Source: an uncultured Eubacteriales bacterium
GTDB lineage: Bacteria; Acidobacteriota; Aminicenantia; Aminicenantales; Aminicenantaceae
Length of the DNA: 64,000 nucleotides
Assembly: GCA_964514305.1 (NCBI GenBank)
Contig: CAZEQD010000002.1
Coordinates: 21,346 to 85,345, forward strand
Direction of reading: 5' to 3'
Positions 4,253 to 56,817 of the stretch are shown here, in pieces. Each line of letters begins with the position of its first letter. Positions within the stretch are counted from its first letter, which is position 1. The notes under the pieces were generated by a model, which saw only the letters and a program-made list of their open reading frames with translations, was not told the origin of the DNA and did no database searches. The position numbers and the translations under genes were made by a program.

Positions 4253-6796
4253 TTAATCCGGGTGAGATGAAGCCTGAGTTTCAGTTATTTTTTTGCTCCG
4301 GCCTAAGATTTTCTTCAGAAATTGACCGGTATAAGATTTCTTATTTGCAGCTACTTCTTCCGGAGTACCTTGGGCCACTATCCAGCCTCCTTTATCCCCT
4401 CCTTCTGGGCCGAGATCAATAATATAATCTGAATATTTAATAACTTCAAGATTATGTTCAATAATGATGACCGTATTGCCCAATTTTACCAGCTGACCAA
4501 GGACATCAAGGAGTTGACGAACATCATCAAAGTGAAGACCAGTAGTAGGCTCATCAAGGAGATACAAAGTCTGGCCAGTGTCTTTTCGACTGATCTCCTT
4601 GGTCAATTTAATCCTTTGGGCTTCCCCACCTGATAAGGTAGGGGCTGGCTGACCCAATCTTATATAACCTAAGCCTACCTTCTTTAATAACCCCAGCTTC
4701 CTTTTCAAGACTGGATGAGCTTTTAAATATTCAAAAGCTTCATCAACTGTCATGGCCAGATAATCAGCAATATTATTTCCTTTGTACTCAACTGCTAAAG
4801 TTTCTTTATTATAGCGCTTGCCCTGGCAGCGGTCACAGGTAACGTAGACATCAGGTAAAAAATGCATTTCAATTTTTTTGGCTCCAGCTCCTTGACATTC
4901 TTCACAGCGACCGCCGGGCAAGTTAAAGCTAAAGCGGCTGGGAGAGTAGCCCCTTAATCTTGCCTCTGGAGTCAGAGCAAAAAGCTGGCGTAAGGAGGTA
5001 AATAAGCCAGTGTAAGTAGCCGGATTGGAACGGGGAGTCCGTCCTATAGGTTTTTGGTCGACAGCAACTACCTTATTAATTTTATCTAAGCCTAAAATTT
5101 TTTTATGCCTTCCCGGTCTTTGTTTGGCTTTATAAAATAAATTGGCTAAGCTCCGGTAGACGATATCATAAATCAATGTGCTTTTTCCTGAACCAGAGAC
5201 CCCCGTCACTGCTGTCATTACTCCCAAAGGAATACGAACATCAATATTTTTTAAGTTGTGTTCTTGAGCTCCTTTGACAATCAACCAGTCTTTTGGCTTT
5301 TTTCGAGGAAAAGGTATGGGGATATATTTTTCTCCTTTTAGATATTGAGAAGTAAGGGAAGAGGATGATTGCAGCAGCCCTTTTAGATTACCTTCAGCTA
5401 CTTTATAGCCTCCTCCCTCTCCAGCTCCAGGGCCCAGATCAAGAATATAATCAGCAGAGCGTATAGTCTGTTCGTCATGTTCAACAACAATAATAGAATT
5501 CCCTTCATCCCTTATACTTCTAAGTAAAGAAATTAGCTTTCCATTATCTCGCTGGTGGAGCCCAATAGTCGGCTCATCTAAAACATAAAGTATCCCTCTT
5601 AGGCGAGCTCCAACTTGAGCAGCCAGCCGAACACGACGGGCCTCCCCTCCAGAAAGAGAGGCGGTTGTCCTGCTCAACTGCAGGTAAGACACTCCCAGCT
5701 CTACCATAATTTTAAGCCGAGAATTAATTTCTTTTAATATTCTAGAGACGATAAGTTCTTGACTGGAACTGAACTTTAAAGAACGCAGCTCAGTTAATAG
5801 GTCGCTGATTGGCAGCAGGCAGAAATCATAAATATTTTTGTTCCCTATTGTAACAGCCAAGCTTTCCTTTCTTAAGCGGCTTCCCCCACAGTAAGAACAA
5901 ACTTCATTGGTAAGTTCAATTTCCCCCCATTTATTTAAAACAGTCTCATAGCCTAAACCATGGCAGTGAGGACAAGCTCCATAAGGGCTGTTAAAGGAAA
6001 AACTCCTCGGCTCTAACTCTGGCAGGCTAAGTTCACAGTAAGGGCAAAGGAGGTTTAAAGAAAAATAATAATCCCTCTCTTTTTCATCAATAATCACTAA
6101 GTCCCCCTTGCCCATCTCCAAAGATAAGTCGACTGCTTCTTTGAGTCTTTTCCCTGAACCTGAAGTTATTTTTATCTCATCAATTAGGACATCTATGTCA
6201 TGCTTTTTTGTTCTTTCTAAAGAGAGGCTTTCCTCTATTTCCCTTATTCGGCCATCTACTCGAAAACGGACAAAGCCTCTTTTGCCCAATCTCTCAAAGA
6301 GAGCATGATATTCTCCTTTGCGGCCTTTAACTACGGGGGCTAGTATCTTTACTTTCTTGCCAGGATAAGTTTGGCCCACCCTTCTCACTATTTCTTCTTC
6401 AGTTTGAGATCTCACCTGGCGACCACAGCGAGGGCAATGAGGCACCCCTACCTTGGCAAAAAGAAGCCGCAATAAATCATAGATTTCAGTTGCAGTTCCC
6501 ACAGTAGAACGAGGATTTGATGAAATCGTCTTTTGCTCGATAGAAATAGAAGGAGAGAGACCTTCAATAGCTTCCACTTCAGGCTTTTCCAACTGTTCAA
6601 TGTACTGACGAGCGTAGGTAGAAAGGCATTCAATATACCTTCTCTGTCCTTCAGCGAATAAGGTGTCAAAAGCTAACGATGATTTGCCAGAGCCACTAGG
6701 GCCAGTAATGACAATGAATTTATTTCGGGGCAGGCTGAGATCAAGATTTTTCAGATTGTGTTGAGAAGCTTTCTTAATAATTATCTCTTTTAACAT
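4253..6796 (-). CDS. uvrA: Excinuclease ABC subunit A (UvrA), 847 aa, lacks the canonical insertion domain
   Basis: Two ABC ATPase modules (GPSGSGKSSLAFDTL and GVSGSGKSTLI), LSGGEA signatures, zinc fingers CPRCG / CPYC..CPHC / CEECQG..CDRCQGKRY. A UvrB-binding-like segment is present. About 95 aa between the second and third zinc modules appear missing compared with E. coli UvrA. Confidence 0.9.
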   Translation of the reverse strand: MLKEIIIKKASQHNLKNLDLSLPRNKFIVITGPSGSGKSSLAFDTLFAEGQRRYIECLSTYARQYIEQLEKPEVEAIEGLSPSISIEQKTISSNPRSTVGTATEIYDLLRLLFAKVGVPHCPRCGRQVRSQTEEEIVRRVGQTYPGKKVKILAPVVKGRKGEYHALFERLGKRGFVRFRVDGRIREIEESLSLERTKKHDIDVLIDEIKITSGSGKRLKEAVDLSLEMGKGDLVIIDEKERDYYFSLNLLCPYCELSLPELEPRSFSFNSPYGACPHCHGLGYETVLNKWGEIELTNEVCSYCGGSRLRKESLAVTIGNKNIYDFCLLPISDLLTELRSLKFSSSQELIVSRILKEINSRLKIMVELGVSYLQLSRTTASLSGGEARRVRLAAQVGARLRGILYVLDEPTIGLHQRDNGKLISLLRSIRDEGNSIIVVEHDEQTIRSADYILDLGPGAGEGGGYKVAEGNLKGLLQSSSSLTSQYLKGEKYIPIPFPRKKPKDWLIVKGAQEHNLKNIDVRIPLGVMTAVTGVSGSGKSTLIYDIVYRSLANLFYKAKQRPGRHKKILGLDKINKVVAVDQKPIGRTPRSNPATYTGLFTSLRQLFALTPEARLRGYSPSRFSFNLPGGRCEECQGAGAKKIEMHFLPDVYVTCDRCQGKRYNKETLAVEYKGNNIADYLAMTVDEAFEYLKAHPVLKRKLGLLKKVGLGYIRLGQPAPTLSGGEAQRIKLTKEISRKDTGQTLYLLDEPTTGLHFDDVRQLLDVLGQLVKLGNTVIIIEHNLEVIKYSDYIIDLGPEGGDKGGWIVAQGTPEEVAANKKSYTGQFLKKILGRSKKITETQASSHPD

Positions 6797-6904
6797 AATA
6801 TGATTTTAGCACATTCTTGGCCAAAGTCACGAACCCTTAATTAACATCGAAAAGATCATTATTTCAGCGATTATTAGTAAACACAAAAACAAGCATATAA
6901 GGTT

Positions 6905-6975
6905 ACGTTGATAGCCTTCCATCCAAAGCCCACAGCGGTGGGTGGGGTCTTGGGCAAGGATGGATGGGCATCAAC
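6905..6975 (+). repeat. Truncated copy (core only) of the dispersed ~175-bp structured repeat family
   Basis: ccatccaaagcccacagcggtgggtggggtcttgggcaaggatgg matches the core of copies at 7108, 20183, 35711 and 56434 (ccatccgagcctatagtggtgggtggggggtcttggcgaagatgg). The 3' half is absent. Confidence 0.6.
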
Positions 6976-7107
6976 ATTATTTCTAGTAACTTCTTTAACT
7001 ATTGGGCATCAGGTAAATAAGGATGCATCCATTAGCATTATAAGCATTCTTACTATGAAACCATTTTTTCAGTTGACCAATATCCATGCTCATAATAATA
7101 TAAGACC

Positions 7108-7288
7108 GGAAGCATTTCCAAAACCGTGATAGCTAATAATGAATAAAGTTGTATCTAGGGGCAGCAACTTTCCACTATCCAAACCCATAGCGGTAGGTTA
7201 GGGGCCTTGGCCAGTACGGAGGGAAATCGCTGCCACATATCATTTCCTGGTGAAAACTTTCAATCATCACCGAAATGGAAATGCTTAC
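7108..7288 (+). repeat. Copy A of the dispersed ~175-bp element with nested inverted repeats (possible MITE or structured ncRNA)
   Basis: Outer inverted repeat ggaagcatttccaaaaccg ... ccgaaatggaaatgcttac. Inner stem gcagcaactttcc / ggaaatcgctgcc. Conserved core ccatagcggt...ggccttgg. Aligned by eye to the three other copies. Confidence 0.7.
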
Positions 7289-7313
7289 TAGAAGAAAAAA
7301 TTGGTTGAAGTAA

Positions 7314-11766: not shown

Positions 11767-11923
11767 TCAATAGTCAATCATCTCTTATCCTTTCATATTC
11801 AACCATCAGAAAGTATTTCTATATCCGTGGTCAGTGAAGATTTAAAGTTTTTTGAAATGCTTGCCAACCATCATCTTTATTTGACAATGTCCCAGCCATA
11901 TGCTACTTTTTTTGAGGAAAATC

Positions 11924-20070: not shown

Positions 20071-20182
20071 CTCAGCTTCTATTCTTTTTTAAATTATTCA
20101 ATCTTGATTTATTTTATCACTTCTCCTATCTAAACTTAAGTTTTTTATTTTTCCAGTAAGTACTTGTCCCAAATCATCCCAA

Positions 20183-20349
20183 AAGTATTTCCAAAACCGT
20201 TATAGCTAATAATGAATTTGTATCTAGAAGCAGCGACCTTCGGCCATCCGAGCCTATAGTGAGAGGTCTTGGTGAGGATGGGAGAAATCGCTGCCAAATT
20301 TCATTTCTTGGTGAGGAATTTCACTCATCACGGTTTTAAGGAAGCTTAC
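20183..20349 (+). repeat. Copy B of the dispersed ~175-bp structured repeat
   Basis: tatttccaaaaccgttatagctaataatgaa...gcagcgaccttcggccatccgagcctatagtgagaggtcttggtgaggatgggagaaatcgctgcc...catcacggttttaaggaagcttac. It lies between the convergently ended EIIA(Man) and rapZ genes, which are on the opposite strand. Confidence 0.7.
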
Positions 20350-20425
20350 ATTTTTCCAAGAAGGGAAAGTTCCTTTGAATAATAAAATTAGCTCTTATTC
20401 AACCAGGAATTAATATTTAAAGCTC

Positions 20426-21299: not shown

Positions 21300-21857
21300 T
21301 TAGCGAGACGAAAGAACTCTATTTAGCTTTTTAGCTATTTCTTGAGGAGCAAAGTAACCTTTTTTTCTAAGGATATGGACTTTACAAGCTACTTCAATCA
21401 GAGTAGCAATATTCCTTCCTGGAGCCACTGGAATATTGATTTGAGACACTTTCTGGCCTAAAAGTTCACCTTCCTCAGGAAACTCAACGCCCAGCCGGTC
21501 ATATTCTTTGCCTTTTTTCCACTTCTTAAGGTTAATAATTAAGCTGAGCTCAGCTTGGGCAGAAACCGCTTTAGGACCAAATATTTTTTTTATATTAATT
21601 ATTCCTAATCCCCTAATTTCCATGAAATAGCGGCTGAGGCTGGGCGAGCTGCCCACTAATTTGCCTGCCCTTGTTCTCCTTAATTCTGTGACATCATCTG
21701 AGATAAAGCGGTGCCCCCTGCTAATGAGCTCTAAGGCACTTTCACTCTTGCCTATGCCGCTATCTCCTCTGATCAGAACACCGAGACCAAAAACTTTAAG
21801 TAATCCGCCAGAAATTGTTATTCGTTTAGCAGGGGTTTTATCCTGCCCGCTACTCAT
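21300..21857 (-). CDS. hprK: HPr kinase/phosphorylase, short form (C-terminal catalytic domain only)
   Basis: P-loop GVLIRGDSGIGKSESALELISRGHRFISDD. At 185 aa it is far shorter than the ~310-aa full-length enzyme. Confidence 0.75.
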   Translation of the reverse strand: MSSGQDKTPAKRITISGGLLKVFGLGVLIRGDSGIGKSESALELISRGHRFISDDVTELRRTRAGKLVGSSPSLSRYFMEIRGLGIINIKKIFGPKAVSAQAELSLIINLKKWKKGKEYDRLGVEFPEEGELLGQKVSQINIPVAPGRNIATLIEVACKVHILRKKGYFAPQEIAKKLNRVLSSR

Positions 21858-35587: not shown

Positions 35588-35710
35588 TTGCCTATCACCG
35601 GGATCAGGCTTTGTTATTGATATTTTAAATAGTCTATCTTATTGCTTCAGACTTTCTATTACGACCAAATCTGATCCCAAATCTACACTCTATATAAATA
35701 CACTATACAA

Positions 35711-35886
35711 GGAAGCCTTCCAAAACCGGGTTAGATAATAATGAAGTTGTATCCAAAAGCAGCGATTTTCTTCCATCTGAAGTCCATAGCGGTGAGTGGC
35801 AGGATGTTGGCGAAGATGGGGGAAATTGCGACCACATATCATTTCTTAGTGAAACCTTCTAATCATCCCGGATATGGAAATGCTTG
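35711..35886 (+). repeat. Copy C of the dispersed ~175-bp structured repeat
   Basis: ggaagccttccaaaaccgggttagataataatgaag...gcagcgattttcttccatctgaagtccatagcggtgagtgg...ggaaattgcgacc...catcccggatatggaaatgcttgc. It sits upstream of rpsT. Confidence 0.7.
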
Positions 35887-35904
35887 CTCCTATATAAATA
35901 TAAG

Positions 35905-35933
35905 TTGACTTTAATCGCAGTTTTCCTTATCAT
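35905..35933 (+). promoter_or_regulatory. Putative sigma-70 promoter of rpsT (TTGACT-N17-TATCAT)
   Basis: ttgactttaatcgcagttttccttatcat lies ~25 bp upstream of the rpsT start. Confidence 0.35.
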
Positions 35934-56433: not shown

Positions 56434-56646
56434 GCATTCCTGCGGTAAACATCACCAAAACCACGATAACCAATAATGAAGAAGGTCACACTTATAGGCA
56501 GCAATTTTCCTCCATCCGAGCCTATAGTGGTGGGTGGGGGGTCTTGGCGAAGATGGAGGGAAATCGCTGCCAAAGTTCATTTCTTTATGGGGAATTTCAC
56601 TCCTCACGGTTCTAGGGATACTTTCATTCCTGCCTCAAACAAAAAA
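56434..56646 (+). repeat. Copy D of the dispersed ~175-bp structured repeat
   Basis: agcattcc...caccaaaaccacgataaccaataatgaagaag...gcagcaattttcctccatccgagcctatagtggtgggtggggggtcttggcgaagatggagggaaatcgctgcc...ctcctcacggttctagg. It lies upstream of lpxK. Confidence 0.7.
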
Positions 56647-56817
56647 GCATTTCTATATGAAAATTATTAAAAAAAGCTATTGGTCCCGCATTTAGAGATG
56701 CTTGCCTCAAATCTTGTCTCAAATACAGTTATTATTGGTCATTATGGAAATAATAACGCTTGCCTAAATTAGCCTCATCTTGAAAGAGAAAATAGAATAT
56801 AGTATAGTCCTCAAAGA

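Follow-up and report, generated by a model that had tools for sequence, protein, structure and literature searches.

A probable miniature inverted-repeat transposable element family with 9-bp target duplications in Aminicenantes

Described MITE families and the Aminicenantes elements

Miniature inverted-repeat transposable elements, or MITEs, are sequences shorter than 500 bp whose inverted repeats measure 4-30 bp and which carry direct repeats in young copies and lie in AT-rich intergenic DNA; transcripts that form stable stem-loops, variation in size, truncation of copies and clustering have been reported for them (PMC10969869). We analyzed a 64-kb stretch of DNA from an uncultured Aminicenantes bacterium (contig CAZEQD010000002.1, positions 21,346 to 85,345; the whole stretch is called the window below), whose G+C content is 39% and in whose intergenic spacers a structured element is dispersed. 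Proteins encoded in the window, among them the helicase and RapZ, have identical counterparts on metagenome contigs of 144-151 kb from ENA and JGI, and the named sequences nearest to them belong to Aminicenantes metagenome-assembled genomes. The elements very probably form a MITE family, that is, non-coding, non-autonomous DNA transposons moved in trans, and the published description of MITEs is matched by them point by point. This family in Aminicenantes is undescribed and is an ordinary kind of genome parasite; a literature search found no paper tying Aminicenantes to MITEs. The lineage is widespread and uncultured in sediments and the subsurface, and its mobile elements are poorly described.

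The closest described system in layout is QMITE2 of Coxiella burnetii, the two being likened by their dimensions. QMITE2 is ~190 bp long; its terminal inverted repeats measure 23-29 bp, its direct repeats 7-9 bp and its core 113-145 bp. Its transcript is one long stem-loop, and it is intergenic, with many truncated and size-variant copies (PMC10969869). The Aminicenantes family measures 181-194 bp, with ends of ~25 bp, 9-bp duplications, and truncated and mini variants. However, the host of QMITE2 belongs to the Gammaproteobacteria, not to Aminicenantes of the Acidobacteriota, and QMITE2 is found mostly in 3' untranslated regions, whereas the Aminicenantes copies are mostly upstream of or between promoters.

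ERIC and Correia elements, the MITEs of enterobacteria and Neisseria, are imperfect palindromes of 127 bp or ~150-200 bp, with intergenic copies that number from tens to hundreds; they are frequently transcribed together with neighbouring genes, and their hairpins can then alter mRNA fate (PMC10969869). No sequence resemblance was seen between them and the Aminicenantes family. These families duplicate a TA dinucleotide, not 9 bp.

Terminal repeats, target duplications and empty sites

A profile was built from four window copies (A, B, C, and D) and used in an nhmmer search of the window and of fetched loci (labelled L052 and so on), and 337 kb of unrelated DNA (46 chance-match loci, mostly from Bacteroidota) served as the negative control. 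The Aminicenantes DNA compared amounted to ~280 kb, all from housekeeping regions. The four full copies scored 176-197 bits each (E values of 1e-53 to 1e-60), and all of them were on the plus strand and in intergenic spacers, as the preliminary description of the window had reported; a weaker partial match was seen at 6896-7037. A 26-nt motif of the 5' side occurred four times in the window, against 0.05 occurrences expected by chance. Eight family members were found in ~73 kb of this genome, seven of them in the window and one (copy F) outside it, and further members were present in five other Aminicenantes assemblies. The family ranges in size from 56 to 313 bp, and the full copies show a pairwise identity of 67-84%. 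Scanning of genome contigs for the 5' motif gave 46 loci, all of which were single chance matches confined to the motif, and a scan of metagenome contigs with a stricter pattern, which was probably too strict, gave one true copy only, that in L052. No copy was found in viral contigs in two scans, no match to the element was found in plasmids and phages by blastn, and a look-up of the last protein of the window, made for downstream extension, returned no record.

Each full copy is laid out as terminal repeats, AT-rich spacers, a 13-bp inner stem (GCAGCGATTTTCC / GGAAATCGCTGC) and a core, in which CCATCC...GGATGG encloses a G-rich loop. The terminal inverted repeats are ~25 bp long, with the consensus G-N-AAGCATYTCC-N4-CCGTGAT. 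A profile of 17 ends recovered both ends of every element in the Aminicenantes loci, and it gave nothing below an E value of 0.5 in the control DNA. Target-site duplications, which the preliminary description had proposed to look for, were found as 9-bp direct repeats; they were perfect around B, D, mini element 1 and two elements of L055, matched at 8/9 positions around F, mini element 2 and the L055 mini element, and were decayed around A and C (Table 1). The chance of a 9/9 match, with all tried offsets allowed, is ~1.5e-4 per element. A strict search for end pairs together with a duplication gave four matches in the Aminicenantes loci and none in the controls. The left flanks (AGACC, TTCCA, TACAA, CCTGC, ACCTC, and CATCA) share no motif. 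A relaxed search for end pairs up to 3.5 kb apart, aimed at a full-length insertion sequence (IS), was rejected as noise, with 127 matches in the controls.

The sites of copies A and B were empty in close relatives. In L053, the helicase of which is 91% identical, a single TATAAAATC replaces the two diverged duplicates of A, and the uvrA-helicase spacer is 200 bp in comparison with 517 bp in the window. In L067 (92% RapZ identity), the rapZ-EIIA spacer of 153 bp contains one ATTCTTCA, where the window has ATTTTTCCA-B-ATTTTTCCA. Conversely, some sites without an insertion in the window hold family members in the 89% relative L062, among them the EI/cupin spacer, which is 45 bp long in the window. 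Insertion polymorphism, which had been suggested as a check on the element, was thus found between closely related genomes, and the family could therefore provide natural markers for strain typing.

In the 81%-identical relative L055, three elements share these terminal repeats and are flanked by 9-bp duplications. Inside, the two long ones are GC-rich and unrelated to the window subfamily; no Rfam match was found in them, nor a Pfam match when transposase remnants were looked for. The elements are "type II" MITEs in the sense of PMC10969869, related through their ends alone.

The terminal inverted repeats, the 9-bp duplications and the empty sites support the MITE-like identity, which was the first option raised for the element. 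Our conclusion, of high confidence, is that the elements are a MITE family which a DDE-type transposase with 9-bp staggered cuts would move in trans, the cuts being deduced from the duplications. In the mechanism that we propose, a transposase encoded elsewhere in the genome would recognise the ~25-bp terminal inverted repeats at both ends of each copy, and cuts staggered by 9 bp at insertion would produce the duplication that is observed. Intergenic spacers would collect copies, in many cases just upstream of promoters or between them, with selection removing insertions elsewhere. The interior would be cargo, which here takes the form of a long imperfect palindrome centred on a G-rich core hairpin and in other members is an unrelated sequence or almost nothing. 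After insertion, copies would decay neutrally, while the spreading lineages would retain the palindrome, and a copy within a transcript, as A probably is in the helicase leader, would add a stable RNA hairpin as a side effect. With the end consensus, annotators could mask a repeat that inflates intergenic regions, breaks assemblies and mimics structured RNA, and the insertions would mark spots in promoter regions that tolerate insertion.

The ends and the length of the duplication point to a transposase of the IS66 family, a tentative lead that is possible but well short of probable, with an IS256-type enzyme as the alternative. IS66 terminal repeats are 20-30 bp long and start with GTAAGCG, and the duplications are 8 bp (PMC11946415; PMC12898284). 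The repeat length of the Aminicenantes elements fits the IS66 family (including the ISBst12 group), and several of their ends start with GTAAGCA, GTAAGCT or GTAAGTA; the other starts are GGAAGCA, GAAAGTA and GCAAGCA. AAG at end positions 3-5 is kept in nearly all ends, and the 5' end of D reads GTAAAC. In ISfinder, the IS66 family has 8-9-bp duplications and ends beginning with GTAA. IS256-type elements have ends of the form G-A/G and an 8-9-bp duplication, and they fit about as loosely as IS66 does.

Folding, strand orientation and alternative readings

The coding capacity of the elements was examined. Stop codons were present in all frames, at places that differed from copy to copy. The sole long open reading frame (ORF), of 76 aa on the minus strand of A, extends beyond the element and is interrupted in B and C, and no Pfam match was found in the elements, which bears out the earlier statement that short ORFs are disrupted differently in each copy and that the element is not protein-coding. 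The interiors of the elements contained no promoter-like or terminator-like site, and a role as terminator or outward promoter was rejected for this reason. An integron attC site was rejected because the end motifs do not fit, and a G-quadruplex in the core was rejected because the G-tracts are not conserved in B, which has a 7-nt deletion in the G-rich loop.

The nested inverted repeats noted at the outset were confirmed, in that all copies fold as long nested hairpins; the full copies gave -49 to -57 kcal/mol, with z-scores of -1.3 to -3.6. Such stable folds, together with the probable position of A in the helicase 5' leader, could suggest that each copy is a gene or cis-element of a structured RNA present in several copies, either a small RNA or a leader element, with the sequence conserved through selection on the fold, a reading that we consider very improbable. 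A scan of the whole window with Rfam 15 at gathering score gave no match, and focused scans of the copies at E<=10 gave only chance matches to long non-coding RNAs (18 bits against a gathering score of 55), so the comparison with Rfam that the preliminary description had proposed yielded no known RNA family at any threshold. In the alignment of the six full copies, 85.5% of cells were paired, in comparison with 85.0% in shuffles, and 132/500 shuffles were as high; 19 of the 46 pairs departed solely through unpaired cells. The covariation term of RNAalifold for the 180-nt subfamily was a penalty of +4.4. The compensatory substitutions reported between B and C, from which selection on structure had been proposed, are absent: B changed in the 5' arm only and C in the 3' arm only, so that pairs are broken; substitutions within the 180-nt subfamily likewise break pairs, and its fold gives no covariation in favour of such selection. 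The neighbouring genes of the copies (helicase, rapZ/EIIA, rpsT, lpxK, ftsK, and argF) are functionally unrelated. Because pairing equals that of shuffles, the B and C changes are one-sided and the neighbours are unrelated, the inserted copies appear to be under no selection to fold. A structured RNA also agrees poorly with the antisense position of B in its operon, with the location of C and D upstream of predicted promoters and the lack of promoter-like or terminator-like sites in the interiors, and with close relatives that lack copies A and B while nothing else has changed; duplications of 9 bp and exchangeable interiors are characteristic of transposition rather than of RNA genes.

A different result was obtained for the core hairpin, for which a weaker form of the proposed selection on structure survives and which was aligned across ten elements (the six full copies, 6907-6975, two from L062 and one from L060). 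Between subfamilies, both sides were changed in 9 of the 20 pairs of the core closing stem, and 0/500 shuffles reached the covariation score; variants of this stem include GCAGCGATTTTCC/GGAAATCGCTGC, GGGTCGATTGCC/GGCAATCGACCC and GTTGATAGCC/GGGCATCAAC. This covariation counts in favour of a structured RNA as well, although it comes from few related subfamilies, among which covariation can arise without selection, and it could equally stem from shared descent or from a need of the element for its own propagation. The simplest reading would be the usual one for transposable elements, in which the palindrome is kept in the spreading lineages and dead copies decay.

The orientation of the copies was compared with GC skew. 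In the window the skew is -0.078, and 29/32 bins of 2 kb are negative. The G-rich side was on the strand of negative GC skew in all core-bearing copies (11/11), which represent ~8-10 independent insertions (two-sided p of roughly 0.001-0.008); all of this sample except the L052 copy comes from one syntenic ~90-kb region. The direction of transcription does not account for the uniform orientation, which may reflect replication-coupled insertion or selection. In many IS families, the DDE families IS66a and IS256 among them, orientation relative to replication is biased in a way specific to the family, and the TnpB/TnpC peptides of IS66 bind the beta sliding clamp (PMC3971601, Gomez et al. 2014). 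That survey provides a precedent for the one-strand orientation of the Aminicenantes copies. However, transposase genes and not MITEs were scored in it, the biases of IS66a and IS256 were weak, and most families had few or no biased chromosomes (PMC3971601), whereas 11/11 Aminicenantes copies agree, in a small and mostly syntenic sample. Insertion or survival in one orientation relative to the fork, together with the compensated G-rich core, might be taken to indicate a replisome-coupled transposase or a host-selected strand-polar signal, a proposal that we regard as unlikely. If it were true, a transposase linked to the replisome, for instance by way of the beta clamp or of the lagging-strand template, would orient even a near-symmetric non-coding element; alternatively, the core would be a DNA or RNA signal, strand-polar and selected by the host, that a transposon has spread round the chromosome. 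If the orientation holds genome-wide, the family would offer a clean system in which to study the constraint that the direction of replication places on a non-coding transposon.

The same orientation bears on two further alternatives. Placement on one strand relative to GC skew is given as a hallmark of lagging-strand-template insertion in PMC5027513 and PMC6006769, and with the palindromic architecture it would suit an element derived from single-strand transposition, such as an IS200/IS605 palindrome, a REP/BIME moved by RAYT or an omega-RNA/TnpB remnant. Such an origin is hardly credible here. Single-strand systems make no target duplication and use a fixed target of 4-5 nt, whereas these elements have 9-bp duplications and left flanks without a motif; the ends are true terminal inverted repeats and not subterminal hairpins that differ between left and right; next to the copies in the loci with gene tables, no tnpA, tnpB or RAYT gene was seen; and no match to omega-RNA or HEARO was found in Rfam. 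Single-strand transposition is thus largely refuted by the 9-bp duplications, and the IS200/605-derived, omega-RNA-like and multi-copy small RNA options of the preliminary description were set aside, given these duplications, the lack of a fixed target, of an Rfam match and of covariation within the subfamily. The other alternative retains the MITE as a vehicle and takes the ~75-nt G-rich core hairpin (CCATCC-RA-GCCCATAG-G-rich-TCTTGGCGAGGATGG plus closing stem) as a module under selection of its own, such as a protein-binding hairpin or a DNA signal with strand polarity, which would account for both its conservation and the uniform orientation. Across subfamilies and species, conservation is highest in the core; its closing stem has been swapped for other self-complementary sequences (the variants given above), it persists in copies without recognisable ends (window 6907-6975; L060 16362-16435), and all 11 cores lie on the negative-skew strand. 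We nevertheless think a selected core improbable, since the G-rich loop is poorly kept, as the deletion in B illustrates, and the mini elements and L055 variants move without a core. In addition, a GC-rich segment within an AT-rich spacer can be recognised for a longer time, and the survival of the core may therefore be a detection artefact; the oriented copies bar one come from the single syntenic region; and the few related subfamilies can show covariation without selection.

Several observations weigh against the MITE family as we describe it. No transposase gene with matching ends was found in the ~280 kb of Aminicenantes housekeeping DNA, whole genomes not having been searched. Copies in one genome differ by 16-33%, yet the duplications of B and D are perfect, and several diverged source copies are therefore needed. 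With respect to IS66, the base at position 2 of the Aminicenantes ends is variable (G, T, A or C), that at position 7 is A or T where IS66 has G, and the duplication is consistently 9 bp in comparison with the published 8 bp. The agreement of 11/11 copies in strand is not expected from simple cut-and-paste transposition with near-identical ends, and a selected structure would still be compatible with the covariation seen in the core stem between subfamilies.

Individual elements and gene context

The coordinates of the elements are collected in Table 1.

Table 1. Family members in the window and in the fetched loci, with their ends and flanking duplications ("oriented" marks members listed for the comparison with GC skew)
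Element	Location	Strand	Size and form	Ends or stem	Duplication	Remarks
Copy A	window 7108..7288	+	181 bp, full-length 180-nt subfamily	GGAAGCATTTCC... and ...GGAAATGCTTAC	TATAAGACC (7099-7107) / TAGAAGAAA (7289-7297), decayed, 6/9	nhmmer 196 bits; oriented
Older diverged member	window 6889..7053, limits approximate	+	core hairpin 6907-6975	closing stem of its own type, GTTGATAGCC...GGGCATCAAC	none recognisable	oriented
Mini element 1	window 11809..11864	.	56 bp, little beyond two terminal repeats	GAAAGTATTTC...GAAATGCTTGC	CAACCATCA at 11800-11808 and 11865-11873, perfect 9 bp	
Copy B	window 20156..20349	+	194 bp, long form		ATTTTTCCA at 20147-20155 and 20350-20358, perfect 9/9	nhmmer 178 bits; oriented
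Copy C	window 35711..35889	+	~177-179 bp, most diverged full copy		CTATACAA (35703-35710) / CTATATAA (35890-35897), imperfect, 7/8	nhmmer 176 bits; oriented
Copy D	window 56444..56624	+	181 bp		CATTCCTGC at 56435-56443 and 56625-56633, 9/9 (script)	nhmmer 197 bits; oriented
Mini element 2	window 56641..56705	.	~63 bp	AAAAGCATTTC...GAGATGCTTGC	GCCTCAAAC / GCCTCAAAT, 8/9	beside D
Copy F	L056 3687-3883		full copy		ACATACCTC / ACATGCCTC, 8/9	same genome, 5 kb upstream of window, between ksgA and ftsK; oriented
L052 copy	L052 4316-4497		sixth full copy			unrelated metagenome contig, upstream of ornithine carbamoyltransferase gene; oriented
L055 element	L055 5867-6179		312-313 bp		TTTAAATGT, perfect	
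L055 element	L055 10819-11051		233 bp		CGTCCAGCA, perfect	
L055 mini element	L055 197-268		72 bp		8/9	
L062 member	L062 13558-13790	-				locus skew ~+0.12; oriented
L062 member	L062 19494-19685	-				locus skew ~+0.12; oriented
L062 member	L062 10917-11015	-				locus skew ~+0.12; oriented
L072 member	L072 2076-2204	-				locus skew ~+0.12; oriented
L060 member	L060 16362-16435					oriented

The limits first given for copy A (7108-7288) stand, while those of the other copies were revised. Copy B begins at 20156 and not at 20183, because its perfect duplication lies outside a 27-nt 5' extension (20156-20182), which carries a second, outer repeat resembling the ends, GTAAGTACTTG, placed 27 nt ahead of the usual 5' end. 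An extension of this kind (25-27 nt in the two copies) was also present in the L052 copy, with the outer end-like repeat ACAGCATTTG (4495-4525, minus strand), and the family therefore has long and short forms with alternative 5' ends. The end of copy C was moved from 35886 to 35889. The interval 56434-56646 initially assigned to copy D exceeds the element, the surplus being the 9-bp duplication and the start of mini element 2. The segment 6905-6975 had been taken for a 5'-half fragment; it is the central hairpin of the older member, lacks the 5' arm motif and has another closing stem. This member scored 50.5 bits with the core profile and folds at -34 kcal/mol (z = -3.5), and its 5' layout, in which ACAAGCATATAAGG is followed directly by the stem, is that of element X1 of L062. 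At the same site, L053 retains only the 5' flank and a stem arm.

Both mini elements, and the 9-bp direct repeats, had escaped the first reading of the window. The mini elements were found with the script for end pairs and duplications, and the end profile matched at 11809 for mini element 1 and at 56704-56685 for mini element 2, which folds at -15 kcal/mol (z = -2.9). Mini element 2 starts 16 nt past copy D, and its left duplicate overlaps the right duplicate of D by 2 nt. Copy A is likewise separated by ~55 nt from the older copy. Such clustering of family members has a reported parallel in pneumococcal repeats.

The ornithine carbamoyltransferase of L052 has its nearest named relative in a Candidatus Aminicenantales metagenome-assembled genome, and a homology search found a protein identical to this argF-like product only on a 2-kb contig. 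The identity of the L052 copy to F (84%) and to D (79%) exceeds that of A or C to any other copy of their own genome (66.9-77.8%), which implies that the element lineages predate the split of the hosts or move between Aminicenantes lineages.

The gene context of the copies in the window was then analyzed. Copy A lies in the uvrA-helicase spacer, just after a promoter-like sequence (TTGACC-17-TAATAT, 7073-7101) that is conserved in L053. Copy B, flanked by rapZ and EIIA-Man, falls within the rpoN-ptsN-hprK-rapZ / EIIA-HPr-EI cluster and is antisense to the operon, in agreement with its earlier assignment to the rpoN-PTS(Ntr) neighbourhood. Copy C is located between murJ and rpsT, upstream of the promoter-like site of rpsT (TTGACT-17-TATCAT, 35905-35933), and copy D is upstream of lpxK and of its best promoter-like site. 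Only copy A sits between a predicted promoter and a start codon, so that of the three 5' leaders in which copies had been placed, that of the helicase was supported, by a predicted promoter, and those of rpsT and lpxK were not.

The gap between the divergent promoters of trkH and exbB was occupied in four genomes (window 11800-11873, L055 10810-11060, L062 19485-19700, and L059 14700-15040). The window, L055 and L062 hold different family members there, within ~2 nt of one spot, and L059 holds an unrelated insertion of ~330 bp flanked by AGCCTGG. The duplications are identical within a genome and differ between the window and L055, which points to independent insertions into few permissive spots, and the gap looks like a permissive-site hot spot.

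Two observations were made outside the family. The 64-kb window was without any tRNA, riboswitch, leader or small RNA of Rfam at gathering score. The HPr kinase gene of the window (21300-21857, minus strand) and those of close relatives encode the C-terminal catalytic domain only (185 aa), while in a 79% relative (L071 6995-7906) the protein is 303 aa and the N-terminal domain is also present.

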